This document shows, piece by piece, positions 6,001-45,248 of a stretch of DNA of 47,610 nt; within the stretch, counting starts at the first letter, position 1, and each line of letters starts with the position of its first letter. The position numbers and the translations under genes were made by a program. Origin of the DNA: Alphaproteobacteria bacterium. GTDB taxonomy: Bacteria > Pseudomonadota > Alphaproteobacteria > Rs-D84 > SZUA-605. Under the pieces are notes generated by a model. That model did no database searches, was not told where the DNA came from, and saw only the letters and a list, made by a program, of their open reading frames with translations. The DNA lies in the NCBI GenBank assembly GCA_003250835.1, contig QKJL01000031.1, forward strand, positions 1 to 47,610, read 5' to 3'.

Positions 6001-9000
6001 AGATGGTGTTGATTTTACAGTTGCAACAGGTGGTTTATTTACTCATGCTGGTATTTTTAATATTTCAGAAACTTCAGTTTTTACAAATAATGGAACTGTT
6101 AATGCGACTGCTGCATTAGCTGTGTCAGGTACTTTGGTTAATGCAGCTGATTTGAATGTGGTTGATATGACAGTAGATGGTACATTTACTAATTCAGGTG
6201 ATTTCGATAGTACTGGTTCAGTTGTCTTTAATGATGTTGTAACGAATTCTTCTGATTTCACAGGATCTGATTCAACTGAATTTAATGCTGCTGTTGTTAA
6301 TACTGGTTCAATTACTGGAGATACTTATGTTTTCCATGCAGCTGTTGATAATGATAATTCAATTAATGTGACTGCATTAAATACTTCTGGTGTGTTTGAT
6401 CATTCAGCGAATATGATTGTTGAAGATTTTTCAAATGAAGTAACTGTTGATGATAATGGGACTTCTAATACTACATCGGATGATGTTGTGCGTCTAGGAA
6501 CATTTAATAATACAGGTGATATTGAATTTACTGTGGGTTCAACATTTATGAATAATTCTTGGGTTGATACAAAAGGAACTGCAGATGAAAAAGATGATGT
6601 ATTGTATCAAGCAACATTTAATCATGATGGTACCTTTACTGGATTATCTAATGTAACAACATTTACTAATAAAGGTATTTTTAATTGGAATGTGGATGAA
6701 GTATTGGCTGCGCAAACATTCTATAGCCAAGGTGAATTTAATGTTAATGCGAATTTAACAATCGATTCAAATGTGATTGCGAATGAAGATAGCGTGATTA
6801 CAATTGGTGCAGGGCATACATTGACGATTGCAGGAACTTCAACATTGTCAAATAGTGGTACAATTATTAATAATGGTTCATTTGTTAATAATATGACTGG
6901 TTCATTTGTGAATACAGGTACATTTACACAAGCTGCTGGATCTACATTTACAACAACATCAGATATTAGAAATGCTGGTGAATTTAATTGGGATGTTGCA
7001 ATGGGGTCTGCTGTTCAAGTTGATATTACAAATACGGATGGTGTGTTTAATATTAATGCGGATATGGATTATGATGCGCATATGGAAGTTACTGGTGGCC
7101 AAGTTATTGTGGCGTCAGGTGTGACTTTTGATAATCAATCAGTGAATACAGTTTATGTTGATGGTGGTGAATATCGTGTAGAAGGTACATTTGTGAATAA
7201 TGGTGTTGTTGAAATTCCATCTGGTGATTTTATTGTAGATAGTGGTACATTTACAAATATGACTGATAATGGATATGCTGTTGCGACAACAAATGGAACG
7301 GTTCCGTTAACTGCTCCAGCTTCTGCTGTTTCTGGTGATTTGATTTTTGAGAATACTGCTTCTTATACTGTTGATGCTGCTGTTACGGATGTTTTGATTG
7401 ATTCAAACTTAATTTTACGTAGTAATTCAACATTTGATTTTGGAGAAGCTGAACATCATGTGATGGGAGATATTTCTTTTAATAATGTTGATATCGATCT
7501 TTCATCAGGGGCTGGTTTCTTTACTTCTTTTGGAGGATTATCAGTTGTTGATTCATCTCTTTCTTTGGGAGATAAACATTTAACAGTTGGTGATACATTT
7601 ACAATGAATCGTTCTGATCTAACTATTTTGTATGATGATGCTGATACATCAGCTGTTATCCAATTAGATGATTCAACAAATACTGCATCTTCTATTTCTA
7701 TTACAAATTCAACTATTCATTTGGATTTAGCTTCATCTGTGTTGAATTTAGGGGATCGCGTATTGTTGATTGCGGATGATGCATCTGCTGGGATTTCAAA
7801 TATTGTGTTTACGAATAATACAATGGATATTGATTCTTCATTGTTTGCTGATCAAAATACTATGGTATCATTGAGTGCAAGTTCTGGATTAGGAATTGAA
7901 CTTGTTGTTCACCAAGATTTTACTTTTGAAGTACAAGATCAAAATGCAGAAGAAATTGGAGATGTATTTAATTCTGTTTGGACAGATGATGGTTCTGATC
8001 TATCAAATTATCTTGCTGGTATTATGAGTGAAGCAAATGCAAATGGTTTGGAAAACACATTGGTTGATTTGAAACCTCGTCAAATTGATGCGATCCAACA
8101 AAATCGTATGCGTTTGAATAATTTGGCGATTTCTCATGTTGTGGATCATTTGGATATGGAAACAAATCATTCGATCTTAGATGCTAAGGTATTAGTAAAA
8201 CAAGATTTTGTACCATGGATGCAAGTTTCATTAGGATCTGCGGTAACTGATGGTGCAGGTGGATTTTCTGGGTTCTCATCAGATTCAACAATTCTAAGTG
8301 GTGGATTTGATTATAATACGAAAGATGATATTCGTGTTGGTTTAGGTTTCTCATTTATCCAATCATCAATTGCAGGGGATAGTGCATACAATGTTGATAC
8401 TGTTGGGGGATCTGCTTCTGTTTATGCTCAAACAAAAGTTGATATGTTCTCATTATATGGATTGATTGGTATGTCTTCATATTCATATGATCAGGATCGT
8501 TCAGTATTAGGTTCTGTTGCGGAAGCTTCTTATTCAGATCAAACGATTTTTGCTCGATTTGCAGGTGAAGTTCATTTAACTCCATATATTATTCCTGGTG
8601 TTTTTGTGCAACATCATAGTGTTGGAAGTGTGAGTTATACAGAAACTGGTGCAGGGGATTCTAATTTATCTGTTTCTCAGGAAGGGTATGATTTGACTTT
8701 TGTTGGGGCGAATCTTCGTTTACAGACTTATTTAAAAACTTTAGATTATCAAGTTATTCCTTATTTAAAGATGGAATATGGGCAAAATATGTCTACAAAT
8801 CCTGTTTCAATTCGTTCAAACTTAGAAATTTTACCTACTGATTCATTTAATATGCAAACAGCTGGATTTTCTAGTTTCTATTATACTGCAACTGTTGGAA
8901 CTGATTTCCGTACAAAAGGTACAGATACATTGTTTTCTGCTGGGTATCGTATGATTGTTGATGATCGTACCGTTGATAATCAATTCTTCTTACAATCTAA

Positions 9001-9013
9001 TTTTGTATTCTAA
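2..9013 (+). CDS. Giant autotransporter-type surface protein/adhesin, 5'-truncated by the window edge (3003 codons visible)
   Basis: The frame of ORF 317..9013 stays open back to nt 2 (NSDTTVINNSSFVNSSIVNF...), so the TTG at 317 is not the real start. The passenger is N/T/G/F/S-rich with recurring G-x-F-x-N motifs. The C-terminal ~300 aa switch to alternating beta-strand-like sequence ending FFLQSNFVF (terminal Phe). A strong terminator follows. Confidence 0.85.
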   Translation, partial: NSDTTVINNSSFVNSSIVNFYYANGNNKFTNNDTFLNETGAQVQVHSGDFINTADVTNNGSFVFGYSTTGTGTLNNSGTFTNTAGVQLVSNSTAVTSGEFINSGGLTLAGTSVFTNSGDFIQEGGITLGTGTSFQNDGVFYWDNASAVMTGAGVFSNGPSGEFYLNENLTLAVILNHAGNMFENNATLTVNAAFTSTGVVENYGVITSGTGAIINDNDGSLYGIFRNYDTVNASGSFANNSAKIYNYDTFNASGVFSNTDNGEGTAFFYNEGVLNYTGTSFTNTGGLIDNSGVVNWETAGSLAGAVDNWDEDGISLNDNGGTFNVNANLTILDVSGLTTDSDLNCGGSDATVNFCVQQGSKLTIASGVTFANQGDVALWGRFENQGTYNNTTGTTYIQGNIDLGTFLSAGTLVIEDSSFKNVLGTVDLLSTSGTSSTSLTDVTLVDASFTFNDQSAISIEGDIVVESAASFTMNADTTMTSVAGSVFSNKGSLTALSLTALGDASFRSLINTATLDVEGSLSTDTFFKTTGTVDNSGDMVIGGSNNWIGEDTVYALEDNSVVFDNQVDASLDFSGKVTQGSLNNSGAITSDGFIHIYTYADLINSAGATIDFEGSDLMGLYNSGIINNSGDITFTAGADSDLTSGFYNIRRYGSAGQWINDVGGTMTTDDQIYNTAQLTNNGLITILADGAVYNDDQYNSSGRGAGVFNNTATGVFDHEGYTANYGVINQLGTFENYGLIENYAVFNWDSTVDSEMTGEYANLSDVTNANGVTTLTEYNGQFNVNVDLQLMADSTFTNGEGATFNIANGVTFTNSGTFDTGSDIVISGTFTNNELMHGSLDTVLKGAGTFTNADTFINSKIYDIDDEDPDEDYIDSASTITFNESLASVTNDNTFLNTVSGGVIYNYNDNFVNNGYIISTVDGAGGASENTDFYNYGTITNNETFSAWRLHLGKTNYATNYNIVADATVSFVNSADATFVTDFSLLIGQGTFDNYGVVAAPDNGSLIVYTRGTLINRADATVSMTSASATFENLGGVIDNYGTLVVNVDKTSSYDGLGLLNIVQYTESVPVFTNHEGAQIDSNHRILNHGTFVNSGVIYSSGDLGLQNGMASASATSSTVNGLGEFTNTATGVIHLSGDLENYAVFNQAGTLNNLGGSIKNYGEFNWTSSDNISGAVLNAVSGDYEGEFNISVDLSFEAGSSFVNKSLLVIADDVDVLNNGSLKLDAGELSIGDAGTFTNHVDVKLTGESSVTGTGTFVNDAAGVITIETGSDFVIENTITQFLNTGLIVNDALNSGDITNYSNDFRNDGVIDITGTLNTDETYFYQLGKMTNNGTLRVWRFSLGGWEDMSTWDAADTPDANIEFTNSVGAEFRSTYDVFVNQGTFHNRGTSNIEEWFAIAEHGTVVNYAGADFNFVQPESTSMNNGFSNQGIFNNYGNFSFVLNTEPSSKYFGILNNEGGTLTNYDTGVFTSEYRFLNNGTVVNSGEFNVSGTLGFQNGMTSSAYPNHLTQSQANGLGEFTNTATGVINTSGNFENYAVFTNEGTINNTGIINNYGEFNWDTTNALSGTVVNAVSGQYIGTLDLSVDFIVGAFSDLTNNTGAIIDLADGVDFTVVVDGEFTNAGTFNNEATSSVINNGTFISTSDIDFAGAVTNSGTMTVNEMIAEGTFTNSGDFVANEAVVFDGTVTNSSEFNALDEVEMTALFTNTGNVTGADYRFFGAVDNDAVIDVDTLTVYHTFDNSGDITVQALNNDITVYDNGTAGNTADDIVRIGTFNHTGDITFVTGSTFLNDSWLDDQGTLLTVDDVLHKAVFNHNGTFTNMSNVTTFTNKGIFNWNVAGTLNSQAFSNQADFNVNAALVIASNVTTTADSIITIDSDDSLTIAATTTFTNGGSIVNNGSFVNNTTAAFVNNDVFDNAGSFNLTGLFTNVGEFNHTGTFTNTGTFTNTGVFNWDVVEGLTGSFVNATTGDEKALNMNVDFVVSNLARLTNNSGATINLADGVDFTVATGGLFTHAGIFNISETSVFTNNGTVNATAALAVSGTLVNAADLNVVDMTVDGTFTNSGDFDSTGSVVFNDVVTNSSDFTGSDSTEFNAAVVNTGSITGDTYVFHAAVDNDNSINVTALNTSGVFDHSANMIVEDFSNEVTVDDNGTSNTTSDDVVRLGTFNNTGDIEFTVGSTFMNNSWVDTKGTADEKDDVLYQATFNHDGTFTGLSNVTTFTNKGIFNWNVDEVLAAQTFYSQGEFNVNANLTIDSNVIANEDSVITIGAGHTLTIAGTSTLSNSGTIINNGSFVNNMTGSFVNTGTFTQAAGSTFTTTSDIRNAGEFNWDVAMGSAVQVDITNTDGVFNINADMDYDAHMEVTGGQVIVASGVTFDNQSVNTVYVDGGEYRVEGTFVNNGVVEIPSGDFIVDSGTFTNMTDNGYAVATTNGTVPLTAPASAVSGDLIFENTASYTVDAAVTDVLIDSNLILRSNSTFDFGEAEHHVMGDISFNNVDIDLSSGAGFFTSFGGLSVVDSSLSLGDKHLTVGDTFTMNRSDLTILYDDADTSAVIQLDDSTNTASSISITNSTIHLDLASSVLNLGDRVLLIADDASAGISNIVFTNNTMDIDSSLFADQNTMVSLSASSGLGIELVVHQDFTFEVQDQNAEEIGDVFNSVWTDDGSDLSNYLAGIMSEANANGLENTLVDLKPRQIDAIQQNRMRLNNLAISHVVDHLDMETNHSILDAKVLVKQDFVPWMQVSLGSAVTDGAGGFSGFSSDSTILSGGFDYNTKDDIRVGLGFSFIQSSIAGDSAYNVDTVGGSASVYAQTKVDMFSLYGLIGMSSYSYDQDRSVLGSVAEASYSDQTIFARFAGEVHLTPYIIPGVFVQHHSVGSVSYTETGAGDSNLSVSQEGYDLTFVGANLRLQTYLKTLDYQVIPYLKMEYGQNMSTNPVSIRSNLEILPTDSFNMQTAGFSSFYYTATVGTDFRTKGTDTLFSAGYRMIVDDRTVDNQFFLQSNFVF
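4790..5965 (+). repeat. Intragenic tandem duplication unit, copy A (1176 nt = 392 codons)
   Basis: LTNNTGAIIDLADGVDFTV... (4790) aligns colinearly with LTNNSGATINLADGVDFTV... (5966). The landmarks TTFTNKGIFNWNV (5480 vs 6656) and GSFVNN (5699 vs 6875) keep exactly the same 1176-nt offset. Nucleotide identity is roughly two-thirds by eye. Confidence 0.8.
5966..7141 (+). repeat. Intragenic tandem duplication unit, copy B
   Basis: Same evidence as copy A. The 3' boundary is approximate, because similarity decays after GSFVNN at 6875-6892. Confidence 0.7.
8066..9010 (+). other. Predicted linker helix plus C-terminal beta-barrel translocator domain of the autotransporter
   Basis: From DLKPRQIDAIQQNRMRLNNLA onward, composition changes from N/T/F repeats to alternating hydrophobic/polar strands rich in G, S and Y. 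The final residue is Phe, as in OM beta-barrels. Boundaries are approximate. Confidence 0.6.
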
Positions 9014-9643: not shown

Positions 9644-9672
9644 TTGTCGGATTCTTGTAAATTTGCTATACT
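9644..9672 (+). promoter_or_regulatory. Putative ccrM promoter containing a GANTC site
   Basis: TTGTCG (9644-9649), a 17-nt spacer, then TATACT (9667-9672). GATTC sits at 9650-9654, directly after the -35. The ATG at 9680 lies 7 nt after the -10. Confidence 0.4.
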
Positions 9673-9679
9673 ATTGGGT

Positions 9680-10762
9680 ATGAGTGAGAGAAAAGTTGAT
9701 ATTATTGTGCAAGGTGATTGCATTGCAAACATGAAAAAAATGGATGATCAATCTGTGGATTTAGTGTTTGCAGATCCCCCTTATGCTATGCAGTTAGGAG
9801 GGGAGTTGGTTCGTCCTGATAATTCTCGTGTTGATGCCGTTGATGATGAATGGGATCAATTTGATAGTGTGGAGGCGTATGATAATTTTACAGAAGCATG
9901 GTTGCGTGAAGCAAAGCGTGTAATGAAAGATAATGCTACACTTTGGGTGATGGGATCATATCATAATATTTTCCGTGTTGGAAAAATTTTACAAGATTTA
10001 GGTTTTTGGGTGTTGAACGATGTTCTTTGGATTAAGAATAATCCAATGCCAAACTTTAAAGGTACTCGTTTTACAAATGCTCATGAAACATTAATTTGGG
10101 CCGCAAAATCTTCAAAATCGAAATATACTTTTAATTATGAAGCAATGAAAACCATGAATGATGATACGCAAATGCGTTCAGATTGGTATTTGCCGATTTG
10201 TTCAGGTGGTGAACGTTTAAAAGATGAAAAAGGTGAAAAATTACATTCTACGCAAAAGCCAGAAGCTTTGTTGTATCGTGTATTATTGGCTTCATCTAAT
10301 AAGGGTGACCTTGTGTTAGATCCGTTTTCTGGATCTGGAACGACTGCGGCAGTAGCTAAAAAGTTGGGTCGTCATTACATTGGATTGGAACAAGATGCGA
10401 AATATGTGAAGTTTTCACGTGAACGTTTGGATGAAATTGATCCGGCGGCTGATGAATTATTGGAAGTATCTTCTAAGAAAAAAGAAGCGCGTATTCCGTT
10501 TGGTCAATTGTTAGCAAGTGGGCTTTTGCAACCTGGTACTAAATTGTTTGATGAAAAGCATAAATACGAAGCTGTTGTACGTGCCGATGGTTCGCTTAAA
10601 ACAAAAGATGGTAAGGCTGGGTCTATTCATAAGCTTGGTGCTGAATTGCAAAATGCGCCATCATGTAATGGATGGAAATATTGGATGGTTGAACAAGATG
10701 GTGAGAAAAAATCTATTGATGACCTCAGATCTAAGGTTCGAGATTCCATTAAAGTTGCGTAA
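9680..10762 (+). CDS. ccrM: CcrM-type N6-adenine DNA methyltransferase (GANTC-specific family)
   Basis: Colinear with Caulobacter CcrM as I recall it: [74 protein letters not shown], and the C-terminal [16 protein letters not shown] prefer the ATG at 9680 (MSERKVD) over the TTG at 9644 used in the ORF track. Confidence 0.93.
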
Positions 10763-12386: not shown

Positions 12387-13199
12387 ATGTTTGATATTGA
12401 TCAATTTCGTCGTGAGACATCACGTGATGCTAAGAAAACGTTGGGACAAAATTTTATTTTAGACCCTCGTGTTTTGGAACGCATTGCGAGTGTTGTGAAA
12501 GATCCAGAAGATCAAGTCATTGTTGAAATTGGTCCAGGGTTGGGTACGTTAACCGAGGCTTTGTTGGCGCGACATCCTAAGAAATTGATTGCGATTGAAA
12601 TGGATGAACGCTTGGTGCCATTATTAGAGGCTTTGAAGAGTAAATATTCTAATTTTGATTATGTGTTACAGGATGCTTTGACAATTGATTGGGCGACCTT
12701 TTTAGATGGTCAACAGATTACTCTTGTTTCCAATTTACCCTATAATATTTCAACTGAATTGACAGTTCGTTTTGCGTATGCGCATGATCGTTTTAATCAA
12801 TTGGTTTTGATGTTTCAAAAAGAAGTGGGGGATCGTATTAAGTCATCAATTTCAACAAAGGATTATGGACGTTTATCTGTTTTGTCTCAGTTAATGTTTG
12901 ATGTGAAGTCACGTTTTCATTTACCGCCTTCTGTGTTTACGCCTCCGCCTAAGGTTATGAGTTCTGTTTTATCATTTATGCCACGTACAGTTGATGTTTC
13001 TTCTAAACATTTAGCTGCGTTGCAAGAATTGTTATTACATGCTTTTAATCATCGTCGTAAGCAAATTCAATCAAGCTGTAAGACTGTGATGCCTGATATT
13101 GCCGAACGTTTAAGCGAATTGGGCATTAAGCCGACCGCACGTCCGGAAGAATTAACAGTTGATCAATTTGTAAAACTCTCTTCATTTTTGATTCAATAA
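12387..13199 (+). CDS. rsmA: 16S rRNA (adenine1518/1519-N6)-dimethyltransferase
   Basis: LGQNFILDPRVLERI, VVEIGPGLGTLTEALL and NLPYNISTEL are KsgA/RsmA motifs. Confidence 0.93.
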   Translation: MFDIDQFRRETSRDAKKTLGQNFILDPRVLERIASVVKDPEDQVIVEIGPGLGTLTEALLARHPKKLIAIEMDERLVPLLEALKSKYSNFDYVLQDALTIDWATFLDGQQITLVSNLPYNISTELTVRFAYAHDRFNQLVLMFQKEVGDRIKSSISTKDYGRLSVLSQLMFDVKSRFHLPPSVFTPPPKVMSSVLSFMPRTVDVSSKHLAALQELLLHAFNHRRKQIQSSCKTVMPDIAERLSELGIKPTARPEELTVDQFVKLSSFLIQ

Positions 13200-13224
13200 A
13201 AAAACCGTCCCTTTTCAGAGACGG
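13198..13224 (-). terminator. Minus-oriented hairpin plus U-run with no annotated minus-strand gene upstream
   Basis: A ccgtc/gacgg stem (13205-13224) is preceded on the plus strand by 7 A (a T-run on the minus strand). No T-run follows on the plus strand. Confidence 0.45.
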
Positions 13225-13505
13225 ACCATATGGCTTCTTCACGTTGTTGCTTCTTCCTCTATGGATTTACAAGGATCCTTTTATTGGAAATCTGTTTCCA
13301 TACGCTGGACTTCTCCACCCAACTTATTCACCTTGTTATATTTTGTATTTGTAATATTTTACTTTTCTTCTTTGTTTATACGTTTGTTTTTTTATAAAAT
13401 CAAATTTTTATTTTTTTACGAGAAAACTGTAAAATATCCTTTTCTTTTGTAAAGCAAATCTATATAAATGAGGTTATAGGGAGAATTAAAACGGAGAGGT
13501 TTATC

Positions 13506-14915
13506 GTGCATCGCAATCGCGGAAGTATGTTACTTGAAATTTTGTTGGTAATGGGTGTGATGATTATGGTGATGCCTGTTATGATGCGTAAAGGTTTTTT
13601 AGCGCGTCAAGATCAACAAAATCAAGCTGTTGCGCATAAAATGAAAATGCTGGGTGCGATCGTTCTTAATTATATTCAAAGTTATCCTGATGATTTGGAA
13701 GAAGGTCTGAATGTTATTGCAGATGAACAGTTAACAGATTTGTTTACTGAATATGGTTTGTCATCTGAATTTAATACTACGGATTTTTTTGGTCACGTGT
13801 ATGAAGTGCATATTAATCGTAAAAATTCAGATGATGGGTCGTTTCAATTAGATGCCTTGGTGGTCGCTTATGCACCTATTGGTGATGGACTAAACTTTTT
13901 GCGTCGTAAAAAGATTGCAGAATATTTAGGATTATCTGGGGCTATTTTAGATGAAGATGGCACATTGATGAGCTTGGTTGGTATGTGGAATGATGAAGAA
14001 GGTGGTTGGGAACATCCTTTACCTCTATCATCTATTGTGATGCGTGTGCGTCCAGTCGATTTCTTTAATACTTATCTTAGTCGTACACAAATTGATAGTT
14101 TAGGGAATGCGAACACCATGACGACTGATTTATATATGAGTGGTCATTCAATTGAACGTGTGAAAACTTTTTATGCTGTGAATGCAAATTTTTCACATGC
14201 TCTTGGGGAAAAAATGACTGTGATGGAAGGTTTTGGTTCTGGTACGGATGAAGATGTTGAAAAACAAATTTTTTCAGGGGAATTTGAAACTCTTTATTCT
14301 TATTCTGATTCAGGATCTGAAAATGATGTTCTTTTAATTCAAACACCTTTGAAGGTTTCAGGAGGTGCTACAGATACCACTACACCTGTTATTTCTGGGT
14401 ATGATTTATATGAAGCAGATGATGCTGGTGTGACTGGTACTATTGGTTTGCTGGATTTAACATATATGAATCTTTCATCATTATTATTGCATCCTAAAAA
14501 TTGTGATGGACAATCAAATTGTTCAGAAACAGCTGCCGTTTTATCATATAAAATGACATTAGGATCAGCCCCTGGATCAGATGATGATGCGATTGTTTTG
14601 AGTTCATTTGATTTTACAGATGCTCGTGTAACGGTGGATAATGATTTTTATGATTCAAATAATCTTAGTTGTGGGAATGAATCTTGTGATACTGAATATT
14701 TTCATGTGAATAGTTTGAAAGCTAAAACTATTTTCTTTAATTATGATTCTGATCCAGATTCTGATACGTATCGTAAATATTTTTATAAATTAAATTTATC
14801 GGGTACGAATACAGTGATTTATGATATGGATGATTCCGATGATAATATTAATTTAACGACACGTGTTTTACAACTTTATAACCGATTTTTGATTAAGCGA
14901 ACAACAGGGAAATAA
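13506..14915 (+). CDS. Large prepilin-type protein, PilV-like (type IVb minor pilin/tip adhesin-like), paralog 1
   Basis: GTG start with an SD (ggagagg). The N-terminus VHRNRG/SMLLEILLVMGVMIMVMP has Glu at +5 and Pro at +18. It also carries YGLSSEF, LGLSGAILDEDG..GMW and NTMTTDLYM motifs. The C-terminal half is D/S-rich with C-x5-C and C-x4-C loops. Confidence 0.75.
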   Translation: MHRNRGSMLLEILLVMGVMIMVMPVMMRKGFLARQDQQNQAVAHKMKMLGAIVLNYIQSYPDDLEEGLNVIADEQLTDLFTEYGLSSEFNTTDFFGHVYEVHINRKNSDDGSFQLDALVVAYAPIGDGLNFLRRKKIAEYLGLSGAILDEDGTLMSLVGMWNDEEGGWEHPLPLSSIVMRVRPVDFFNTYLSRTQIDSLGNANTMTTDLYMSGHSIERVKTFYAVNANFSHALGEKMTVMEGFGSGTDEDVEKQIFSGEFETLYSYSDSGSENDVLLIQTPLKVSGGATDTTTPVISGYDLYEADDAGVTGTIGLLDLTYMNLSSLLLHPKNCDGQSNCSETAAVLSYKMTLGSAPGSDDDAIVLSSFDFTDARVTVDNDFYDSNNLSCGNESCDTEYFHVNSLKAKTIFFNYDSDPDSDTYRKYFYKLNLSGTNTVIYDMDDSDDNINLTTRVLQLYNRFLIKRTTGK

Positions 14916-14918
14916 TAT

Positions 14919-16286
14919 ATGGATCATCACGATATTCGTTCTTCTGGATTAAGTATGCTTGAAGTAATTTTTACTTTGGCTATTTTGATGATGATTACTC
15001 CGTTTATGTATCGTCAGATGATCCGTCATACTCATCAGCTTCAAGCTTTATCAATGGCTAAGAATTTTAAACAATTGGAAGAAGCTGCTACAAATTATGT
15101 ACGTATTAATGAAGTTTCTTGGGGTGATGGATATGAGGAAACTATTTCAGGGGTTGCATTGCTGGATCGTATGGAAAATTATGGCTTAAAACGTCCTTTT
15201 CAAACGTATCCTCAATTTTTTACACGTTTTTATTTTACAGTGATAAAAAAAATTGATTCTAGTGGTAATGAAGATACGAATGCTTATGTTATTATTTTAC
15301 ATCATCCATCTTTTTCTGCTTTGCGTGCATGGCAAATTATTAATTTTTTAGGTGCAACAGCTGGATATGCTGATGATGGTATTGTGGAAGGGTTCCAAAA
15401 TGCTTGGCGATTAACTAATTGGGATTATGAAGATAAGGCGATTGTTTTGCGTATTAATTGGGCTAATCCAAAAGAACAGCCTAAAAATTATTTACATACG
15501 ACGGATGTTGCGGGAGATCCCGTTTATAATACGATGGAAAAGAATTTGTATTTAGGGGCAGGGATTACGTTTTATGATGTGCGTAATGCTTATAATATTA
15601 ATCCATTAGAAGAAAATGAATTGCGATCAGGTAAGATTGAAGCAGATGAAGATTTTAAGGTGAATTATTTACATATTGAACCTGTTGCTGATTCTGAAGT
15701 TGGAGATGATAAATCTTCTTCTGATTCAGATACACCTTTGCTCGTTGCGGAAGAAGGGTATTTTTATAATGCTTTGCGTGTTGGGCAGGCAGATAATGAT
15801 GATAGTTCTTTTACCGTTGCTGGGGATGTAACAGTTAACTATAAAATTTTTCTCCATTCTGATTATACTGTTGGTTCTTTATCGGCAGTTTCATCTGGAT
15901 CAGGACGTTTATCGGGAGATACTGTTCAATTAACTTTAACAAATGGTGTGGATGCTGGATATTGGATTTCTAATCTTAAGGTTTTAGATTCAGCTTCTGG
16001 ATTTGAACATTTAGATGAATTTTTAATTAAGGATAGTTTGAAGTTTAATAGTCAGCAAGTTCCTGTTTTTCAGAATATTGAAATTACAGGGGAAATATAT
16101 GTGGAACAAGGAATGGTGTTTAGTGATTTAGGGTTGGATACTGCTATTAAAACTGTATCTGGTTCTCCTTATCCTCCTAAAATACAAGCTAATAAAATTA
16201 TTTTGGAAAACGTTTCTGATACATCTGTGTTGGATTATATTTCAGGTTTATGTAACCAACTTGATGAAGAAAATGGGTGTAATTAA
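14919..16286 (+). CDS. Large prepilin-type protein, PilV-like, paralog 2
   Basis: The N-terminus MDHHDIRSSG/LSMLEVIFTLAILMMITP has Glu +5 and Pro +18. It also carries YGLKRPF, LGATAGYADDG..NAW and NTMEKNLYL. The C-terminal LCNQLDEENGCN Cys loop resembles a pilin D-region. Confidence 0.75.
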   Translation: MDHHDIRSSGLSMLEVIFTLAILMMITPFMYRQMIRHTHQLQALSMAKNFKQLEEAATNYVRINEVSWGDGYEETISGVALLDRMENYGLKRPFQTYPQFFTRFYFTVIKKIDSSGNEDTNAYVIILHHPSFSALRAWQIINFLGATAGYADDGIVEGFQNAWRLTNWDYEDKAIVLRINWANPKEQPKNYLHTTDVAGDPVYNTMEKNLYLGAGITFYDVRNAYNINPLEENELRSGKIEADEDFKVNYLHIEPVADSEVGDDKSSSDSDTPLLVAEEGYFYNALRVGQADNDDSSFTVAGDVTVNYKIFLHSDYTVGSLSAVSSGSGRLSGDTVQLTLTNGVDAGYWISNLKVLDSASGFEHLDEFLIKDSLKFNSQQVPVFQNIEITGEIYVEQGMVFSDLGLDTAIKTVSGSPYPPKIQANKIILENVSDTSVLDYISGLCNQLDEENGCN

Positions 16287-17756
16287 ATGCAGAAAAAGTT
16301 AATGCGTGAATTTGGTGGTATGTTGATGGAATTATTGCTGATGCTTGTAATTATTGGCAGTTTGCTTCCATTTATTTATCGTCAAAATACCCGTAAAAAA
16401 GAAGCGATGGAAAATGCTGCGGTTGCTGCTGAAATGACTGAAATTAAAACAGCGGTTGAACGTTATGTGGAAGAACAGGGGTCTGTTTTAAAAGGGTCGT
16501 TAGGTGGAAAGGTTTATAGTCTTTCTTTTAGTGATTTATATCAATATGGGTTGTCGTCTGCTATTCATCATATGAATAAATATGGTCAATTATATTCAGT
16601 TAAATTGCGTAAAATTACTGCAAATAATGGTGTATCCACCATTAAAGGATTGGTCTATGCGACTGGTGGTGAAATGGATTTTATGCAGCGTCGTCGTATT
16701 TCTAATTATACTGGACCTGGTGGTGGAATTATTGAGGATGGTTTAATTCTTGGTGGAAGTGGTTCTTGGGTTGAAACGTGTAATGAATGGAATTTGAAAG
16801 TGGCTACAGGAACAGTTGTTTTGCGTACAACATCTCAGCAGGAAAGTTATACATTTGTGCGTCGTGATTCTGATAGTGAAATTGATGCAACAATGGCGAC
16901 AGATCTTGTTATTTTGAATCGTGATATTCATGATGTTTCGTATGTGTCCGCAAAAGCTGTTGAAATTAATGGAACACTTTCATTAAATTCATTGCGTATT
17001 GATGATGAATTTGGGAATGATTATGAACCTGCTTTTAAGACTTTTGAAGTTCGTAATCAGGCGACTGAAAATTCGGATGATGTTCCTTTGTTTATTCGTT
17101 TAAATATCTTAAAAAATGTGAATGTTGCTGGGTCTATGCAGTTGTATAAGGGTATTAATTCTCCTTCTGCAGCTTTGAAAATCCAAAATGCTGTTTATTT
17201 GAATGGTTATTTAAATGTGGAGCATTTAAAGGCTTATGATTTTACTGTGGATTCATTGGAAATTTGTAAAAATGGATCATCTTGTGATGATGGTGATAAA
17301 ATTTATGATCTCACTGTCCGTTCGTTGATTTCCTATAAGCAATTGGCTTTTCAATATTTGAAAGCCCCTTATATGAAAGTAAAGGGTCCATCATTGAAGA
17401 TTAATTCAGGTGGTGGTGTGTATGATATTAATGATAAGTCTGAGCGTAAAATTACTCAGGCAGAAGTTCGTTTGTATGATACTGTTTTAATGCGTTTAAA
17501 TGAATGTGTTTTGTATAATCGTAATTGTCCTGATGAATCTAATTTTGTTTTACAAAAAGATACCACTGGTGATGGATATAATGATTTTCAAATTACTTTT
17601 GAAAATATGTTAAAAGAATTGAAAGCAGATTGTTCAACAGAATTTTATGCGGCGAATGATGAAGATAAAGAGAAAAAAATTCAAAGTATTAAAGTATCTG
17701 AAATTATTCGTTGTATTGAACAGTTAATGTTACAATTTGAAACGGATGGGGACTAA
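16287..17756 (+). CDS. Large prepilin-type protein, PilV-like, paralog 3
   Basis: The start abuts the previous stop (TAAATG). The N-terminus MQKKLMREFG/GMLMELLLMLVIIGSLLP has Glu +5 and Pro +18. It also carries YGLSSAI, YTGPGGGIIEDG..GSW and ATMATDLVI. The C-terminal half is divergent and contains Cys pairs. Confidence 0.75.
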   Translation: MQKKLMREFGGMLMELLLMLVIIGSLLPFIYRQNTRKKEAMENAAVAAEMTEIKTAVERYVEEQGSVLKGSLGGKVYSLSFSDLYQYGLSSAIHHMNKYGQLYSVKLRKITANNGVSTIKGLVYATGGEMDFMQRRRISNYTGPGGGIIEDGLILGGSGSWVETCNEWNLKVATGTVVLRTTSQQESYTFVRRDSDSEIDATMATDLVILNRDIHDVSYVSAKAVEINGTLSLNSLRIDDEFGNDYEPAFKTFEVRNQATENSDDVPLFIRLNILKNVNVAGSMQLYKGINSPSAALKIQNAVYLNGYLNVEHLKAYDFTVDSLEICKNGSSCDDGDKIYDLTVRSLISYKQLAFQYLKAPYMKVKGPSLKINSGGGVYDINDKSERKITQAEVRLYDTVLMRLNECVLYNRNCPDESNFVLQKDTTGDGYNDFQITFENMLKELKADCSTEFYAANDEDKEKKIQSIKVSEIIRCIEQLMLQFETDGD

Positions 17757-17759
17757 TTA

Positions 17760-18479
17760 ATGAAATTAGAAACACGCGGTGTTTTGCTTTCTGTTCAACC
17801 ATTTTCAGAACATGATTTGATTGCTTCATTTTTTACTGCAGATCATGGACTTTTATCCGGTGTGATTGGTTTTGGGCAACGTGGTAAAATGAAGGATCAG
17901 TATCAAATTGGTAATTTTTTTGATATTTCATGGATGGCACGTTTGGAAGATCATTTGGGTCGTTTTAAGCTTAATTTTGTTCAATCCTATCAACAATATT
18001 TTTTATTTAGTAATTTGAAGTTGGCGTGTTTGAATAGTTGCGTTGTTGCCTTGAAATCATTTTTTCCTGAAAAGCAATCTTATCCTGATTTATATCATAC
18101 AACTCAATCTTTACTGGTGAAATCTTCTGTGTTATCTGATGAGGATTTTTTGAAGCTTTATTTTCAATTTGAATTAGAACTTTTGTCAGAACTTGGGTTT
18201 GGGTGTGATTTTTCATGTTGTGCTTTGACTGGTCGTAAAGATAATTTGGCTTATGTGTCGCCGATTACTGGGCGTGCGGCTTGTCGAGAGGCTGTGTCAG
18301 ATTATGCTGATAAACTTTTACCGTTGCCTGCGTTTTTGTGTGATGATAATGCTTTTTTTATAAAGTCTGATTTGAAAGATGCTTATGACTTGATTGATTA
18401 TTTTTTCAGAAAGCATTTTGAAGATGATGGACAGCTCTTTTTTGATATTCGTCAAAGATTATTAAAATTTTGTGCTTGA
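17760..18479 (+). CDS. recO: DNA repair protein RecO
   Basis: The RecO-like N-terminal OB region is GVLLSVQPFSEHDLIASFFTADHGLLSGV. A Cys-containing central region (CDFSCCALTG) is present, and the size is right (239 aa). Confidence 0.85.
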   Translation: MKLETRGVLLSVQPFSEHDLIASFFTADHGLLSGVIGFGQRGKMKDQYQIGNFFDISWMARLEDHLGRFKLNFVQSYQQYFLFSNLKLACLNSCVVALKSFFPEKQSYPDLYHTTQSLLVKSSVLSDEDFLKLYFQFELELLSELGFGCDFSCCALTGRKDNLAYVSPITGRAACREAVSDYADKLLPLPAFLCDDNAFFIKSDLKDAYDLIDYFFRKHFEDDGQLFFDIRQRLLKFCA

Positions 18480-18544
18480 TGCGCGGTTTTTGATTTGCTA
18501 TAACTTTTGTATCAGTAGAGATAAAATGTTAGGAGAAATCAATT

Positions 18545-20782
18545 ATGACAGCGAAAGTACAGCCTGTTGAAGTAATTAAAGATGAACAATTATCTGATGC
18601 TCTTTCTGAGCGTTATTTAAATTATGCTATGTCGACTATTATGGATCGTGCGTTACCAGATGTACGTGATGGGTTAAAACCTGTGCATCGTCGTTTGATG
18701 TTTGCCATGCGTGAATTAAAATTGCATCCGAAGTCAGGCTTTAAGAAATGTGCCCGTGTGGTTGGGGACGTAATGGGTAAATTCCACCCACATGGTGATT
18801 CTGCTATTTATGGAGCGATGGTTCGATTGGCTCAAGATTTCTCTGTGCGTTATCCATTGGTTGATGGTCAAGGAAACTTTGGTAATATTGATGGTGATGG
18901 CGCGGCCGCGATGCGTTATACAGAAGCGCGTTTGACTCGTGTGGCTGAAATCTTGATGGAAGGTTTAGATGATAATGCAGTTGATTTTACACCAACATAT
19001 GATGGGTTAGATCAAGAACCGCTTGTTATGCCGGCTGGTTTCCCAAATCTTTTGGCAAATGGTCAAATGGGAATTGCCGTGGGTATGGCGACGAATATTC
19101 CTCCTCATAACTTAGATGAATTATGTGATGCATTGGTTTATTTGCAAAATCATCCGAATGCAGAAGTTTCTCGTTTAGTTGATTTTGTGTCTGGTCCTGA
19201 TTTTCCAACTGGTGGGTTGTTGATTGATTCAAAAGAAACAATTATTAGCAATTATGAAAAAGGGCAAGGATCATTTACTATTCGTGCGAAATGGGAAAAA
19301 GAAGATTTACAATATGGAAATTATCAAATTGTGGTTACTGAAATTCCATATCAAGTTCAAAAGTCACGTTTGATTGAAAAAGTGGCTGAATTATTAGAAG
19401 AAAGAAAATTGCCTTTGATGGTTGATATTCGTGATGAATCTGCCGAAGATTTGCGTATTGTGATTGAACCTCGTAATCGTACAACTGATCCTCAGCTTGT
19501 GATGGCGCATTTATTTAAGTTGACTGAGTTTGAATCTAAGTTCAATATGAATTTGAATGTGTTGGATAAAAATCACGTTCCATACGTAATGAGTTTGAAA
19601 GATGCTTTGATGCATTATTCTGATCATCGTCGTGATGTTTTGGTGCGTGTGACGGAATATCGTTTATCTAAGATTGCGCATCGTTTGGAAGTATTAGGTG
19701 GTCATTTAGTTGCTTATTTAAATATTGATGAAGTGATTAAAATTATCCGTGATAATGATGAGCCAAAGCCTATTTTAATGTCTCGTTTCCAATTGAGTGA
19801 AATTCAAGCCGATGCTATTTTGAATATGCGTTTACGTTCTTTGCGTCGATTGGAAGAAATGGAAATTCAAAAAGAAGATCAAGCATTACGTGCTGAACAA
19901 AAAGAATTAAACGATTTATTAGGTAGTGATGAAAAAATTTCTTCTAAATTGATTGAAGAATTTAAAGCATTGAAAAAAGAATTTTCAAAGAAAACAGATC
20001 TTGGCCGTCGTATGACTGAAATTACTGAAGTATGTGAAGATATTGAAGTTTGTGCGGAACAATTTATTGAAAAAGAACCAATTACAGTTGTGATGTCTGA
20101 AAAAGGATGGATCCGTGCATTGAAAGGGCATAGTGATTTGGATGCTGGATTTGCTTTTAAAGATGGTGATAAGCAACGTTTTGCTTTCCATGCACAGACA
20201 ACTGATAAATTACTTGTATTGGCAGATGATGGTAAGGTTTATACTTTGGGAGCTGATAAATTACCACGTGGGCGTGGATTTGGTGAACCATTGTCTTTGA
20301 TGATTGATCTTGGTGCGGCTTATATTGTTGATTTATTTATCCATCACCCAAATTCTCAATTGTTGATTGCGTCTACATTAGGACATGGATTTGTGGTCGA
20401 TTCAGATACATTGATTGCTCAAACTCGTACTGGAAAGACTGTGTTGAATTTACCAGAAGGATCTAAGCCGGCATTAATGACTTTGATTAATGAAGGCGAT
20501 GATCGTGTGGCTGTTCTTGGGTCTCATCGATCATTGTTGATCTTTAATTTGGATGAATTGCCGAATCTTTCTCGTGGAAAGGGTGTGATTTTACAAAAGT
20601 ATCGTGATGCGAAAACTAAATTGGCTGATGTCATGACATTTAAGGCTGAAGATGGTTTTTATTGGGAAACAGGTCGTGGTAAGACTGTTGTGAAAGATTT
20701 CCGTATGTGGCAGGGAAAACGTGCTTCTGCGGGACATGCTCCACCAGCTGGATTTCCTAAGAGTAATCGATTTAAATCATAA
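18545..20782 (+). CDS. parC: DNA topoisomerase IV subunit A
   Basis: [57 protein letters not shown] and [11 protein letters not shown] (active-site Tyr). At 745 aa with no GyrA box seen, it is more likely ParC than GyrA. Confidence 0.87.
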
Positions 20783-20787
20783 GAAAA

Positions 20788-20812
20788 AGAGGCTTTTGTA
20801 GCCTCTTTTTTG
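20788..20812 (+). terminator. Terminator after parC
   Basis: An agaggc/gcctct stem with a 7-nt loop, followed by a T-run. Confidence 0.8.
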
Positions 20813-22308: not shown

Positions 22309-22392
22309 ATCTATTTTCATTTATTAAGGATTGATTTTTCTTTGTTTTTTCTTTATTCTTTTAAAGTGAGAGATTTAAGAGAGGAATTTTTA

Positions 22393-23166
22393 ATGCGTTT
22401 ATTTTTGGTATTACCCTTATTATTTATGACAACTTCTGTGTTTGCGGAACAAATTCAGTTTGAATTAGGTGTGAGTTCATATTCTCATGATTATGAAGAA
22501 CCTGGTTTAATGAAAGAAAGTGGTACGTTGACAGGGATTGATGCGTCTATTATTTATCGTGATGGTATTTTTGCTCAGTTATCAGTTGAAAATGGTAAAG
22601 GAAATGTGACTTATGATGGGACAGGTACAACAACAGATGTTCCAGATAACTTGTATGAATATCGTGCATTGATTGGTAAGGATTTATTGGCTGGACAATG
22701 GCGTGTTACTCCGTACCTTGGGTATGGACGTCGTTATTTGAATGATAACTCTCAAAGTATGATTAGCGATGAAAGTGGGATTGGGTATGAACGTCAGTCT
22801 GAGTATTCTTATGTGCCAATTGGAATTTCTATGCGTTATCAAGTTGCTGGGTGGGCACTTACACCGACTGTTGAATATGATTATTTCTTAGAAGGTACTC
22901 AAACCTCTTATTTGGGGTACTTAGATCCTATTCTGACTGGAACTTATCAAGATGTAACAAATAAGCAAAATGAAGGGATGGGATATCGTCTTTCAGTTAA
23001 ATTAACTAAATATTTGCCAAACAATATGGCGTTTGGTGTAGAAATGTTCTATCGTTATTGGGATATTGGTGATTCAGTTGTGTTTATTGATTCTGACTTA
23101 AATGGTTGGATGGAACCCGCGAATACAACGGAGCAACTTGGTATTCGTGCCTCTATGCAATTTTAA
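22393..23166 (+). CDS. Outer-membrane beta-barrel protein (family not assigned)
   Basis: The ATG at 22393 has an SD (agagagg). A signal peptide MRLFLVLPLLFMTTSVFA/EQ is present. The sequence has an alternating aromatic/polar strand pattern and a C-terminal ...IRASMQF ending in Phe. Confidence 0.65.
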   Translation: MRLFLVLPLLFMTTSVFAEQIQFELGVSSYSHDYEEPGLMKESGTLTGIDASIIYRDGIFAQLSVENGKGNVTYDGTGTTTDVPDNLYEYRALIGKDLLAGQWRVTPYLGYGRRYLNDNSQSMISDESGIGYERQSEYSYVPIGISMRYQVAGWALTPTVEYDYFLEGTQTSYLGYLDPILTGTYQDVTNKQNEGMGYRLSVKLTKYLPNNMAFGVEMFYRYWDIGDSVVFIDSDLNGWMEPANTTEQLGIRASMQF

Positions 23167-24300: not shown

Positions 24301-25386
24301 TTAAGGTTGGGTAAGTTGGAATTCGATACGTCGATTGTATGAACGTTCTTCTGCTGTTTTTCCTGGGGTCACTGGTTGATGTTCTCCGAAGCCAGTTGCC
24401 GCCAAGTTTTTAGGGTTAATTCCTTTTGAAATTAAATATTCCACTACTGCAATTGCACGTGCTGTTGACAATTCCCAATTTGATTTGAATTTAGCTGATT
24501 TAATTGGGGCTGCGTCAGTATGTCCGTCTACGCGGATAATCCATTTTGTTTTTGATGGAATTTTTTTAGCAATTCCACGTAGTATTTTTGCTACGTTATC
24601 TAATTCTTTTTGCCCTGTTTCCCCGATTGTAGCTGAACCACTGGCGAAGAGTACTTCGGATTGGATCACGAAACGATCCCCTTTGATCCCTAAGTTTTTA
24701 TTGTCTTTTAGTGCAATTGTTAATTCTTGGAAAAATTCAGAACGATAGAAATGAAGTTCTGCTGTTTTGTTTGCTAAGGCACGGTTGAGGCGTTTGCCTA
24801 ATTCAACAATTTGTACTTCATTTTGTTTGATTGTTTGGTCAGCGGCGTCCAATGCTGCGTTTAATTTTTTCATCTCTACATTTAGTTCGGCAATATTTTG
24901 GCGAAGTTCCTTATTTGTGTTTTTTTGATATCCGATGATTTTATCAGATTTGATAATTTTACCTTCAAGCTCGCCTACGAATACATTCATTTTATTAATG
25001 TTATTTTGGAGTGTTTTATTATGTTCACGTTCTTGAAGTGCTTTTTTATGGAGAATTTGATAACTCTTTTTAAGACCTTCAATACGATCATCTTTAATAT
25101 CAAGTTCTTCTGATGCACGAATGAGTTCATTATTAAATTTATTAATTTGACGATATAAAGATTCTTTTTCATTATTAGCCGCTGTAATTTGTCGTTCCAT
25201 TTGCGTAACGCGTGCTACTAATTCTGTCATTTTTCCAGCATCTTTTGATGTTTGCATGGTTAAAAAGAATTGAGATAGGATAAATACAAACACTACGAAG
25301 AGTAAGAGTACTACTAGGTTTGAGAATAAATCTACGAACCCAGACCAAGAATTGTCCACGAAAGGTGAGTTAAAACGTGTTTTCAT
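24301..25386 (-). CDS. MotB/OmpA-like stator B-subunit with ~190-aa coiled-coil spacer
   Basis: The N-terminal TM carries a conserved Asp (NSWSGFVDLFSNLVVLLLFVV). A long heptad-like region follows (ELVARVTQMERQITAANNEKESLYRQINKFNNELIRASEEL...). The C-terminal OmpA-like PG-binding domain has RVDGHTDAAPI, NWELSTARAIAVVEYL and NRRIEFQL. Confidence 0.85.
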   Translation of the reverse strand: MKTRFNSPFVDNSWSGFVDLFSNLVVLLLFVVFVFILSQFFLTMQTSKDAGKMTELVARVTQMERQITAANNEKESLYRQINKFNNELIRASEELDIKDDRIEGLKKSYQILHKKALQEREHNKTLQNNINKMNVFVGELEGKIIKSDKIIGYQKNTNKELRQNIAELNVEMKKLNAALDAADQTIKQNEVQIVELGKRLNRALANKTAELHFYRSEFFQELTIALKDNKNLGIKGDRFVIQSEVLFASGSATIGETGQKELDNVAKILRGIAKKIPSKTKWIIRVDGHTDAAPIKSAKFKSNWELSTARAIAVVEYLISKGINPKNLAATGFGEHQPVTPGKTAEERSYNRRIEFQLTQP

Positions 25387-26520
25387 CTATTCTTCTGTTT
25401 TATTCTTTTTTGCAGGTTTTGTTTTTTCAATTGCGATTGTTTTTGCAAGGACTTTTAAATCATTTGATAATTGTGTTGTCATTGTTTTAATATTTGTATC
25501 AATTGATTTGATATTATTTTTTGTAGGTGTGTCCATTCCAAGATTTTCAGATAATTGGTTTAATTTATCAATCATTGGTGTTAGTGATTGGTAACTTTTG
25601 GCAATTGATTCAATTCCACTGAGATCGTTTTTCATGCTGGTTGATACGTTGATAAGACTTTTTGCCATTGATTCCATTGTCGCATTGGTTTGTTGACTGT
25701 TTTCTTCACTACGGAGTACTGCTGTTTCTAAACGATTTAATGTATCGCCTGTTTGTTCAAGGAGAGCTTGTAGGTATGAAAAAATACTATCTTCGCCTTT
25801 TGCGCCTTTAATTCCACCACTGATACGTGTTAATGATGATAGTTTTTCTTCGATTAGATTGTAAAAGTCATTTTGTGCTTGGTTTACTTGGAGTGTTAAG
25901 AACCCAAGGATTAACGAAGCAGATAATCCAAGTAAAGATGATGAGAAGGCCACGCCCATTCCTGATAATGGCGTTGCTAAGTCTTCTTTTAATGATTGAA
26001 ACACTAATTCAAAATCAGTTGTATTGAAAGCTAGGTTATTTACTACGTTTGCGATTGATCCAATTGTCATGAGCAATCCAAAGAATGTTCCCAATAGTCC
26101 CAAGAAGATTAATACGTTTACAAAGTAACGTGCAGTATCTTTGTAGTCTTGTAGACGAGAGCCTGTGATATCTAAGATTGATTGTAAAGAACCAGATGAT
26201 AGGTATGGTGTTGATTTTCCTTGATGCCCACGTAAAATTTCCGCCAATGGGTTTAAAAGCTTTGGTGCAAAGTTTATGCCTAATTTACGTGTTGATAGGA
26301 AGTTCTTTAACCAATCCATTTCTGGGATTAAAATAAGTACATTTTGATATGATCGTACGACTGCTGTGATAAATACCAATATAATGATTGAGTTTAATTC
26401 TACATTTGCTGAGAATATTTGTATAAACTGAGGAATAAACGTTAAGAAGATCCCAGCGATTACAGCTAGAAACACGGTCATTTTGATTAGATATTTTTTT
26501 GCGAAGCTTTGAGCGAACAT
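25387..26520 (-). CDS. MotA/TolQ/ExbB-family proton-channel protein with ~150-aa helical C-terminal tail
   Basis: Hydrophobic helices include the family signature FLGLLGTFFGLLMT and GMGVAFSSSLLGLSASLILGFLTL. The C-terminal tail is S/N/K/T-rich and predicted helical. Its stop abuts the start of the B-subunit gene. Confidence 0.85.
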   Translation of the reverse strand: MFAQSFAKKYLIKMTVFLAVIAGIFLTFIPQFIQIFSANVELNSIIILVFITAVVRSYQNVLILIPEMDWLKNFLSTRKLGINFAPKLLNPLAEILRGHQGKSTPYLSSGSLQSILDITGSRLQDYKDTARYFVNVLIFLGLLGTFFGLLMTIGSIANVVNNLAFNTTDFELVFQSLKEDLATPLSGMGVAFSSSLLGLSASLILGFLTLQVNQAQNDFYNLIEEKLSSLTRISGGIKGAKGEDSIFSYLQALLEQTGDTLNRLETAVLRSEENSQQTNATMESMAKSLINVSTSMKNDLSGIESIAKSYQSLTPMIDKLNQLSENLGMDTPTKNNIKSIDTNIKTMTTQLSNDLKVLAKTIAIEKTKPAKKNKTEE

Positions 26521-45100: not shown

Positions 45101-45248
45101 TTACCGTTGTAATAATGTATGGAATATTTACATCAGGGAATGATTCTTTTGGAATTGTGATATAAGAAATTGCCCCTGCGATAATAAGTAAAATGAGGGT
45201 TGTTAATACACTTCTCATACGGTTGAAAAGGGCTGATACTAATTGCAT
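42157..45248 (-). pseudogene. RND (AcrB-like) inner-membrane efflux pump, reading frame broken by a 1-nt frameshift near 42650
   Basis: The track ORFs 42648..45248 (866 aa) and 42157..42615 (152 aa) are the N- and C-terminal parts of one ~1030-aa RND pump. The first ends ...FLMVAFIVAIA-TAA, and the second frame reads LILLTQFNSFYSMFLILFAIILS from 42651 downward. One extra T (GCT TTA instead of GCTTA) would restore colinearity. Confidence 0.8.

Follow-up and report, generated by a model that had tools for sequence, protein, structure and literature searches.

The 47,610-bp stretch analyzed here (hereafter the window) is one entire contig, QKJL01000031.1 of the alphaproteobacterial assembly GCA_003250835.1. 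Between its rsmA and recO genes lies a tandem trio of genes whose products, we propose, are three distinct minor pilins of the PilV family that serve a type IV filament as a tip or adhesin set. N-terminal signal, homology and structural model all point to PilV-family minor pilins. We consider the general reading, minor pilins or tip adhesins, to be likely, and favor on balance its more specific form, with three different PilV-family subunits. PilV is known as the specificity-determining tip adhesin of the conjugative thin pili of plasmids and islands; here it has a large and almost entirely unannotated family of relatives with textbook prepilin signals. We found no paper describing such chromosomal trios.

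All three N-termini read as class III (prepilin) signals, as an earlier note on this DNA had claimed. Each protein (numbered 1 to 3 in gene order) has a basic leader of 5-10 residues ending in Gly, followed by a hydrophobic stretch with Glu at +5 and Pro at +18. A six-frame regular-expression scan of the window found this signal in the three trio open reading frames (ORFs) only, and neither a further class III signal nor a candidate major pilin, Flp-like patterns included. The signal is also kept among relatives. Gly-1 and Pro+18 occur in 36 of the 37 trio-type proteins scanned, the lone exception being a miscalled start, and Glu+5 is present in all save four members of orthologue group 1, to which protein 1 belongs, that carry Gln. 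Across 155 representatives of the wider family (the 150 best matches plus five from a later search), Glu+5 is found in 146 and Pro+18 in 144; together with Gly-1, these are among the very few invariant or nearly invariant columns of the family alignments. The label “type IVb-like” that the earlier note attached to these signals is harder to sustain: residue +1 is its one support, and the leaders are short.

Profile and model evidence extends from this signal into the pilin domain. A profile built from 51 family sequences and searched against all Protein Data Bank (PDB) sequences matched type IV filament subunits exclusively, in register on the N-terminal helix: Geobacter PilA-N (E 6e-6), GspG (5e-4), PilE1 (0.02) and TcpA (0.5). 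AlphaFold2 modeled full-length protein 3 with a predicted local distance difference test score (pLDDT) above 90 for residues 1-180, and with a long helix (residues 2-71) packed on a β-sheet of 5-6 strands. The domain-only model of the same protein had a mean pLDDT of 86.5 and a predicted template modeling score (pTM) of 0.78.

Homology to plasmid PilV was found by several routes. The first ~225 residues of the three proteins are paralogous (BLASTP; E 4e-17 for proteins 1 and 3, 1e-14 for 1 and 2, 2e-7 for 2 and 3). When 72,556 plasmids (7.3 Gb) were searched by tblastn, the N-terminal domain of protein 1 gave a single match (E 5e-8), to the annotated pilV of an Acetobacter vaccinii plasmid, which is located in a type IVb pilus and Dot/Icm-type transfer cluster. 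The product of this gene matches the Pfam family Shufflon_N (PF04917) at 2e-18; pairwise BLASTP with it gave 1e-16, and alignment of a three-paralogue profile with PilV by hhalign gave 96.9% probability. In the same plasmid search protein 2 gave five sub-threshold matches, each within an annotated pilV and on five different plasmids, and protein 3 gave no match. A profile of 24 trio N-terminal domains matched five annotated PilV proteins (E 1e-22 to 8.5e-14, Z = 100,000), encoded on plasmids of Erwinia, Serratia, Enterobacter, Acetobacter and Acidovorax. When the profile was built from the window trio alone, these five came up again at E 3.6e-14 to 1.2e-8, and no other window ORF was matched. 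Shufflon_N is matched directly by 6 of the 31 nearest relatives, and the orthologues P0007 and P0011 carry Pfam Shufflon_N matches; relatives that match PF04917 cover just positions ~11-207 of the 324-position model, roughly its first two-thirds. PilV and the trio have in common the motifs that the earlier note had quoted, YGL.., G..GGY.EDG...G..G.W and NTM.T.L.MGG..I..V. Its assignment of the N-terminal ~200 residues to the constant region of PilV thus stands as homology, by tblastn, BLASTP, hhalign and profiles alike, and falls short of a direct match to Shufflon_N or N_methyl.

The plasmid proteins themselves vary at the N-terminus. The annotated Acetobacter plasmid pilV (L001, 6855-8258) begins directly after a stop codon, without leader or Gly-1, and enterobacterial plasmid PilV proteins, including L013 8620-9708, start KRG/IAQITD.. 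(the slash marks the cleavage site), without Glu+5. For these two reasons we regard plasmid PilV signals as less canonical than those of the trio.

Several results weigh against the assignment to PilV-family minor pilins. None of the three proteins matched Shufflon_N at E up to 1, and none reached the cut-off of Pfam N_methyl (PF07963; best E 0.67 for protein 2, 10.1 bits against 21.2), so that their membership of the PilV family is transitive. Foldseek searches of the PDB with both the full and the N-domain models returned nothing significant (best E about 1), and the pilin fold therefore has the support of topology and sequence and no structural match. The C-terminal half is β-rich in the AlphaFold2 model and of low confidence. 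A scan that covered every window ORF of at least 100 aa, together with the terminal partial ORF, found no pilus ATPase, platform protein, secretin or prepilin peptidase; the flanks of ten related loci likewise held no type IV assembly gene and no major pilin candidate. Two further searches gave little: an NCBIfam scan returned just weak matches to the N-terminal helix, far under the cut-offs (ComGE, E 0.055; GspG, E 0.01), and no solved PilV structure surfaced in the PDB sequence or fold searches.

These negatives could suit proteins that build no filament at all, either bitopic inner-membrane or secreted proteins with a prepilin-like N-terminus or pseudopilins without an external fiber, given that no machinery lies near any locus, that there is no significant structural match to solved pilins and that N_methyl is not reached. 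Set against this, the most conserved positions of the family are precisely Gly-1, Glu+5 and the helix proline, the PDB profile matches are exclusively pilins and pseudopilins, and homology ties the trio to an established pilus protein; we consider a non-filament role improbable. ORF scans and a repeat search bear out the earlier observation that no shufflon, Rci recombinase or assembly gene lies within 47 kb; the lack of machinery over this distance is true yet not unusual, as minor-pilin operons are frequently located away from assembly genes (PMC7248040). We retain the minor-pilin reading.

We examined how the trio is distributed. Word-indexed homologue searches are nearly blind to this family, and relatives were found by exhaustive HMMER search, in which the three-paralogue profile retrieved 928 representatives at E ≤0.001 and 246 at E ≤1e-10. 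Profile scans of a genome collection yielded one locus; of two metagenome scans, the first yielded none and the second one small locus. The two relatives that have NCBI names are annotated as hypothetical proteins. One related locus is that of the metagenome-assembled genome Alphaproteobacteria bacterium EPI_MAG_00149 (L004; trio proteins of 494, 493 and 488 aa), in which the order ccrM...rsmA...trio-recO-parC is the order of the window, at identities of 61% for ParC, 49% for RsmA and 37% for RecO. The window ccrM (9644-10762, + strand) encodes a CcrM-type N6-adenine methyltransferase with a RAMA domain, and its counterpart is likewise found upstream of rsmA in L004, evidence both for conserved synteny and for an origin in the Alphaproteobacteria. 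L004 also has an inserted gene for a 957-aa autotransporter between rsmA and the trio (3551-6424, - strand); the window has a small autotransporter-β-like ORF at 22342-23166.

recO also directly follows the trio in GCA_016936785.1 (L008; 487, 423 and 544 aa), GCA_054385415.1 (L006) and the Logan assembly SRR1560848 (L010), which makes the window and four others with this adjacency, the junctions overlapping or 1 nt long in the relatives. In three loci the trio lies away from recO: GCA_031549365.1 (L009; 488, 479 and 431 aa), where efp is next, and the ENA scaffold ERZ1051194 (L002; 480, 475 and 509 aa) and GCA_024692925.1 (L003; 451, 471 and 501 aa), both with a different housekeeping neighborhood. 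The Logan assembly SRR31444209 (L007; 500, 419 and 348 aa, the last gene cut by the contig end) has an HTH_5 gene upstream on the opposite strand.

In each of L002, L003, L004, L007, L008 and L009 the genes stand in the tandem order 1-2-3 (the trios of L006 and L010 are cut by contig ends), and gene order tracks the same three N-terminal signature types in all trio loci. A neighbor-joining tree of the N-terminal domains gave position-specific groups, with bootstrap values of 100 for group 1 (within the sub-lineage of the window), 95 for group 2 and 78 for group 3. In 99 of 126 comparisons the gene that gave the best BLAST match in another locus held the corresponding position, a share that rose to nearly 100% within the sub-lineage. 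N-domains of positional orthologues are 33-42% identical (E 1e-41 to 1e-67), as against 20-27% between paralogues. All trio ORFs are intact in every locus. This pattern points to an old, chromosomal and vertically inherited unit in uncultured low-GC Alphaproteobacteria, as judged from sequence comparison, and not to the leftover of a mobile element.

Such a leftover could in principle account for the PilV homology: an integrated I-type conjugative element might have decayed and left pilV behind after loss of its pil and tra genes, and the closest annotated relatives are indeed plasmid pilV genes in pil and Dot/Icm-type transfer clusters. The ORFs are intact in all loci, however, the GC content of the trio matches that of the rest of the window and fits the host genome, and synteny has held across genomes whose RecO proteins are only 37% identical. 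No integrase, relaxase or tra gene is found near the trio, neither the window nor any trio locus shows the pil operon of an I-type conjugative element, and the trio signal peptides are more canonical than those of plasmid PilV. We reject the remnant on composition and synteny and regard it as nearly excluded.

The C-terminal halves present a different picture from the N-terminal domains. They show no significant mutual similarity except for one 41-residue Cys-loop motif in proteins 1 and 3 (E 0.001), which, that motif apart, upholds the earlier description of them as unrelated. Even between positional orthologues they are barely alignable (E 0.4 to 1e-7). All three are acidic, with isoelectric points of 4.1-4.7 and net charges of -12 to -26, and contain 4, 2 and 6 Cys respectively, including five pairs at Cys-x4-8-Cys spacing, while the N-terminal domains are almost free of Cys; this is the pattern that would be expected of exported, disulfide-bonded domains. 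These outward halves, which diverge fast, are the likely sites of contact with hosts or partner cells in organisms whose cultivation is not yet possible.

Variable C-terminal halves on related scaffolds would also suit the earlier note's idea of three alternative tip adhesins, each used alone, for example as a homotrimer, so that three fixed specificities take the place of one inverting gene. The C-terminal segment of PilV determines receptor specificity (PMC9045228, PMC5297154), the C-terminal halves of the trio are mutually unrelated and fast-evolving, single- and two-gene relatives exist, and the window has neither shufflon nor recombinase: no sfx-like inverted repeats of the repeated 19-bp type occur in 13000-18600, the best candidates being dispersed and having arms with 71-89% complementarity, no integrase or recombinase (Rci) is encoded among the window ORFs, and recO comes directly after gene 3. 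The scaffolds argue the other way. In a shufflon the scaffold is identical, whereas in the trio it is itself specialized, paralogous N-domains being less alike than positional orthologues, and every complete locus retains all three genes in the same order. We think independent alternative adhesins plausible but less likely. The idea in the earlier note that they are a hard-wired substitute for a shufflon is a poor fit to orthologue groups that are old and position-specific, to an order that is kept and to scaffolds that have diverged. Old, specialized scaffolds, none of them lost or reordered in complete loci, form the pattern to be expected of three non-redundant subunits.

We therefore return to three different minor pilins, for which we infer the following course of processing, filament incorporation, tip location, heteromeric assembly and adhesion. 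Each trio protein would be made with its short class III signal, and cleavage after the conserved Gly would fall to a prepilin peptidase of PilD/GspO type whose gene would lie elsewhere in the genome. The hydrophobic helix, with Glu+5 and Pro+18, would then insert into the filament core, and the conserved pilin domain of ~200 residues would form the filament tip, with the acidic, disulfide-looped and fast-evolving C-terminal half facing outward to bind a host, partner-cell or substrate surface. Because the paralogues stay separate orthologue groups in fixed order, the three proteins may work jointly in a tip or initiation complex with three subunits. Such a complex would be heteromeric and would correspond to the homotrimer of CofB/TcpB or to the GspI-J-K cap. 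Type IV filaments of this class are three-start helices with trimeric or three-part tip caps (PMC7248040, PMC5207764).

This last step, a heteromeric tip or initiation complex, we put forward tentatively, as possible and short of an even chance. Parts of the comparison count against it. The wider family includes a two-gene form beside virB9/virB10 (L012, 759-3397) and single-gene forms of ~1000 aa (L011, 10001-13012). The cap subunit GspK is without Glu+5; a GspK-like cap subunit would typically be without it, whereas all three window proteins keep Glu. The Gln that group-1 proteins carry at +5 in four lineages resembles this state and is a small supporting hint for such a complex, protein 1 of the window again being one that keeps Glu. 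In the boldest reading, which we hold to be less likely than not, the trio would amount to an obligate 1:1:1 heterotrimeric tip made of three diverged PilV paralogues, the first heteromeric large type IVb tip initiator or adhesin, inherited vertically in a clade of streamlined Alphaproteobacteria and in a chromosomal lineage that was the source of plasmid PilV. A more extreme variant would have these genomes do without an ordinary type IV pilus machine, the trio proteins being handled by some other system. If the trio does form one tip complex, it would be an experiment of nature on the way in which the large tip proteins of type IVb pili trimerize and prime assembly, and would show a route from homotrimer to heterotrimer. 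Two side observations concern the ~1000-aa forms: they give a weak DUF2345 signal (the C-terminal β-helix of VgrG) after the pilin domain, and one of them adjoins flagellar genes in a genome of 51% GC.

The closest known proteins are PilV of plasmids and PilV2 of an island, which the trio resembles in architecture. PilV of the IncI1/IncI2 plasmids R64 and TP114 (PMC9045228) has the same homologous N-terminal ~200 residues, the same motifs and a similar size (~360-550 aa), and in both cases a conserved N-terminal part is joined to a variable C-terminal one. Plasmid PilV is, however, a single gene with a shufflon, Rci, sfx sites and a pil/tra cluster, none of which the trio has, whereas the trio consists of three diverged paralogues that are chromosomal and vertically inherited. 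It departs from the shufflon PilV family in three defining features, in that it stays under the curated Pfam threshold, shows no switching by Rci/sfx and is not set in a pil cluster, and also has the canonical signal G/xxxxE in place of KRG/IAQITD... PilV2 of the Pseudomonas aeruginosa island PAPI-1 is likewise a fixed chromosomal PilV-type minor pilin without DNA inversion, and its C-terminal segment binds a lipopolysaccharide surface ligand (PMC5297154); it is a single gene in a complete 10-gene pil2 type IVb cluster on a transferable island, in contrast to three genes with no cluster and no mobile element.

CofB of the enterotoxigenic Escherichia coli pilus CFA/III and TcpB of TCP, the toxin-coregulated pilus of Vibrio cholerae, are also minor pilins of large size (~420-520 aa), in which a pilin domain at the N-terminus is followed by β-rich C-terminal domains, and have been proposed to form a tip trimer that starts assembly (PMC7248040, PMC5207764). 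Both are single genes that form homotrimers, whereas the trio could fill the three positions with three paralogues; neither CofB nor TcpB matched the trio in PDB sequence or fold searches. In GspI-GspJ-GspK and FimU/PilV-PilW-PilX, as in the trio, several minor pilins or pseudopilins are encoded in one operon apart from assembly genes, and these subunits come together in a staggered complex at the tip, by which assembly is primed (PMC7248040). The trio proteins are about three times larger than these and have no detectable homology to them beyond the N-terminal helix: no GspI/J/K or FimU-PilVWX family was matched in NCBIfam or Pfam, and only the weak GspG N-terminal-helix match was found.

The ORF map and Pfam matches confirm three tandem plus-strand genes between rsmA and recO, with the lengths and gaps that had been reported (Table 1). 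The upstream neighbor is rsmA/ksgA (Pfam RrnaAD, 2e-51). Gaps between the trio genes are 3 nt (TAAtatATG, genes 1/2) and 0 nt (TAAATG, genes 2/3), and recO follows the stop codon of gene 3 after a further 3 nt (TAAttaATG). A GGAGAGG Shine-Dalgarno sequence at 13493-13499 lies 7 nt 5' of the GTG of gene 1. A σ70 scan found no convincing plus-strand promoter in the AT-rich region upstream of gene 1, and Rfam and tRNA scans found no known RNA in the spacer between rsmA and the trio. From this layout recO is probably co-transcribed with the trio, and the first strong terminator-like hairpin, after parC, is a possible end of the trio transcription unit. A GC-rich hairpin (13205-13224) stands straight after rsmA; it is terminator-like only on the minus strand, and no minus-strand gene terminates at that site.

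Table 1. Positions of the trio genes, their parts and their flanking features in the window.
Feature	Positions	Strand	Description
Intergenic region 5' of gene 1	13200-13505	+	AT-rich; probably contains promoter; contains GGAGAGG ribosome-binding site
Gene 1	13506-14915	+	GTG start; 469 aa; orthologue group 1
Gene 1, leader and pilin domain	13506-14180		Leader MHRNRG, mature start SMLLE; PilV-type pilin domain to ~residue 225
Gene 1, acidic C-terminal half	14181-14912	+	Cys333/339, Cys389/394
Gene 2	14919-16286	+	455 aa; orthologue group 2
Gene 2, leader and pilin domain	14919-15593		Leader ending ..IRSSG, mature start LSMLE; PilV-type pilin domain to ~residue 225
Gene 2, acidic C-terminal half			Cys445/454
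Gene 3	16287-17756	+	489 aa; orthologue group 3, the best-conserved group
Gene 3, leader and pilin domain	16287-16961		Leader ending ..MREFG, mature start GMLME; PilV-type pilin domain to ~residue 225
Gene 3, C-terminal half			Six Cys
recO	17760-18479	+	Pfam RecO_N and RecO_C
parC, then first strong terminator-like hairpin (20783-20811)	18545-20811	+	Pfam DNA_topoisoIV

The close coupling to recO raises a different function, in which the trio would serve a competence pilus, used for DNA uptake, as its tip or receptor, co-expressed with RecO for the recombination of incoming DNA. Besides the 3-nt junction here, gene 3 and recO are overlapping or almost contiguous in L006, L008 and L010 and are adjacent in L004, the opposite strand carries radC 3 kb downstream, and there are known type IV filaments in which a minor pilin is the DNA receptor (PMC6370729). 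Yet the C-terminal halves, with their strong negative charge, are poorly suited to DNA binding, the trio lies away from recO in L002, L003 and L009, no comEA, comEC or dprA is present in the window, and tight packing with housekeeping genes is usual in small genomes. We judge a DNA-receptor role unlikely on account of the acidic C-terminal halves, and the competence explanation as a whole has, in our view, little probability next to a tip or adhesin set of PilV-family minor pilins.

Elsewhere in the window, a giant ORF (317-9013, + strand) encodes a protein of 2898 aa without Pfam match and with Gly/Thr/Ser-rich repeat stretches, possibly a large β-helical surface protein. A neighboring pair on the minus strand (24301-26520) combines a MotA/ExbB-like protein (weak ZorA_4 match, 1e-5) with a PRK09039-type OmpA/MotB-like peptidoglycan-binding protein (4.8e-94) and resembles a stator-like pair. 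An AcrB-type transporter (42157-45248, - strand) is split into two ORFs 32 nt apart, of 866 aa (model positions 12-872) and 152 aa (890-1018); a frameshift, pseudogene or error of assembly is suggested by this split. GC skew is strongly and steadily positive (+0.2 to +0.3) over positions 1-42000 and almost all genes there are on the plus strand, which suggests that the window is the leading strand of one replichore in a genome of 34% GC.

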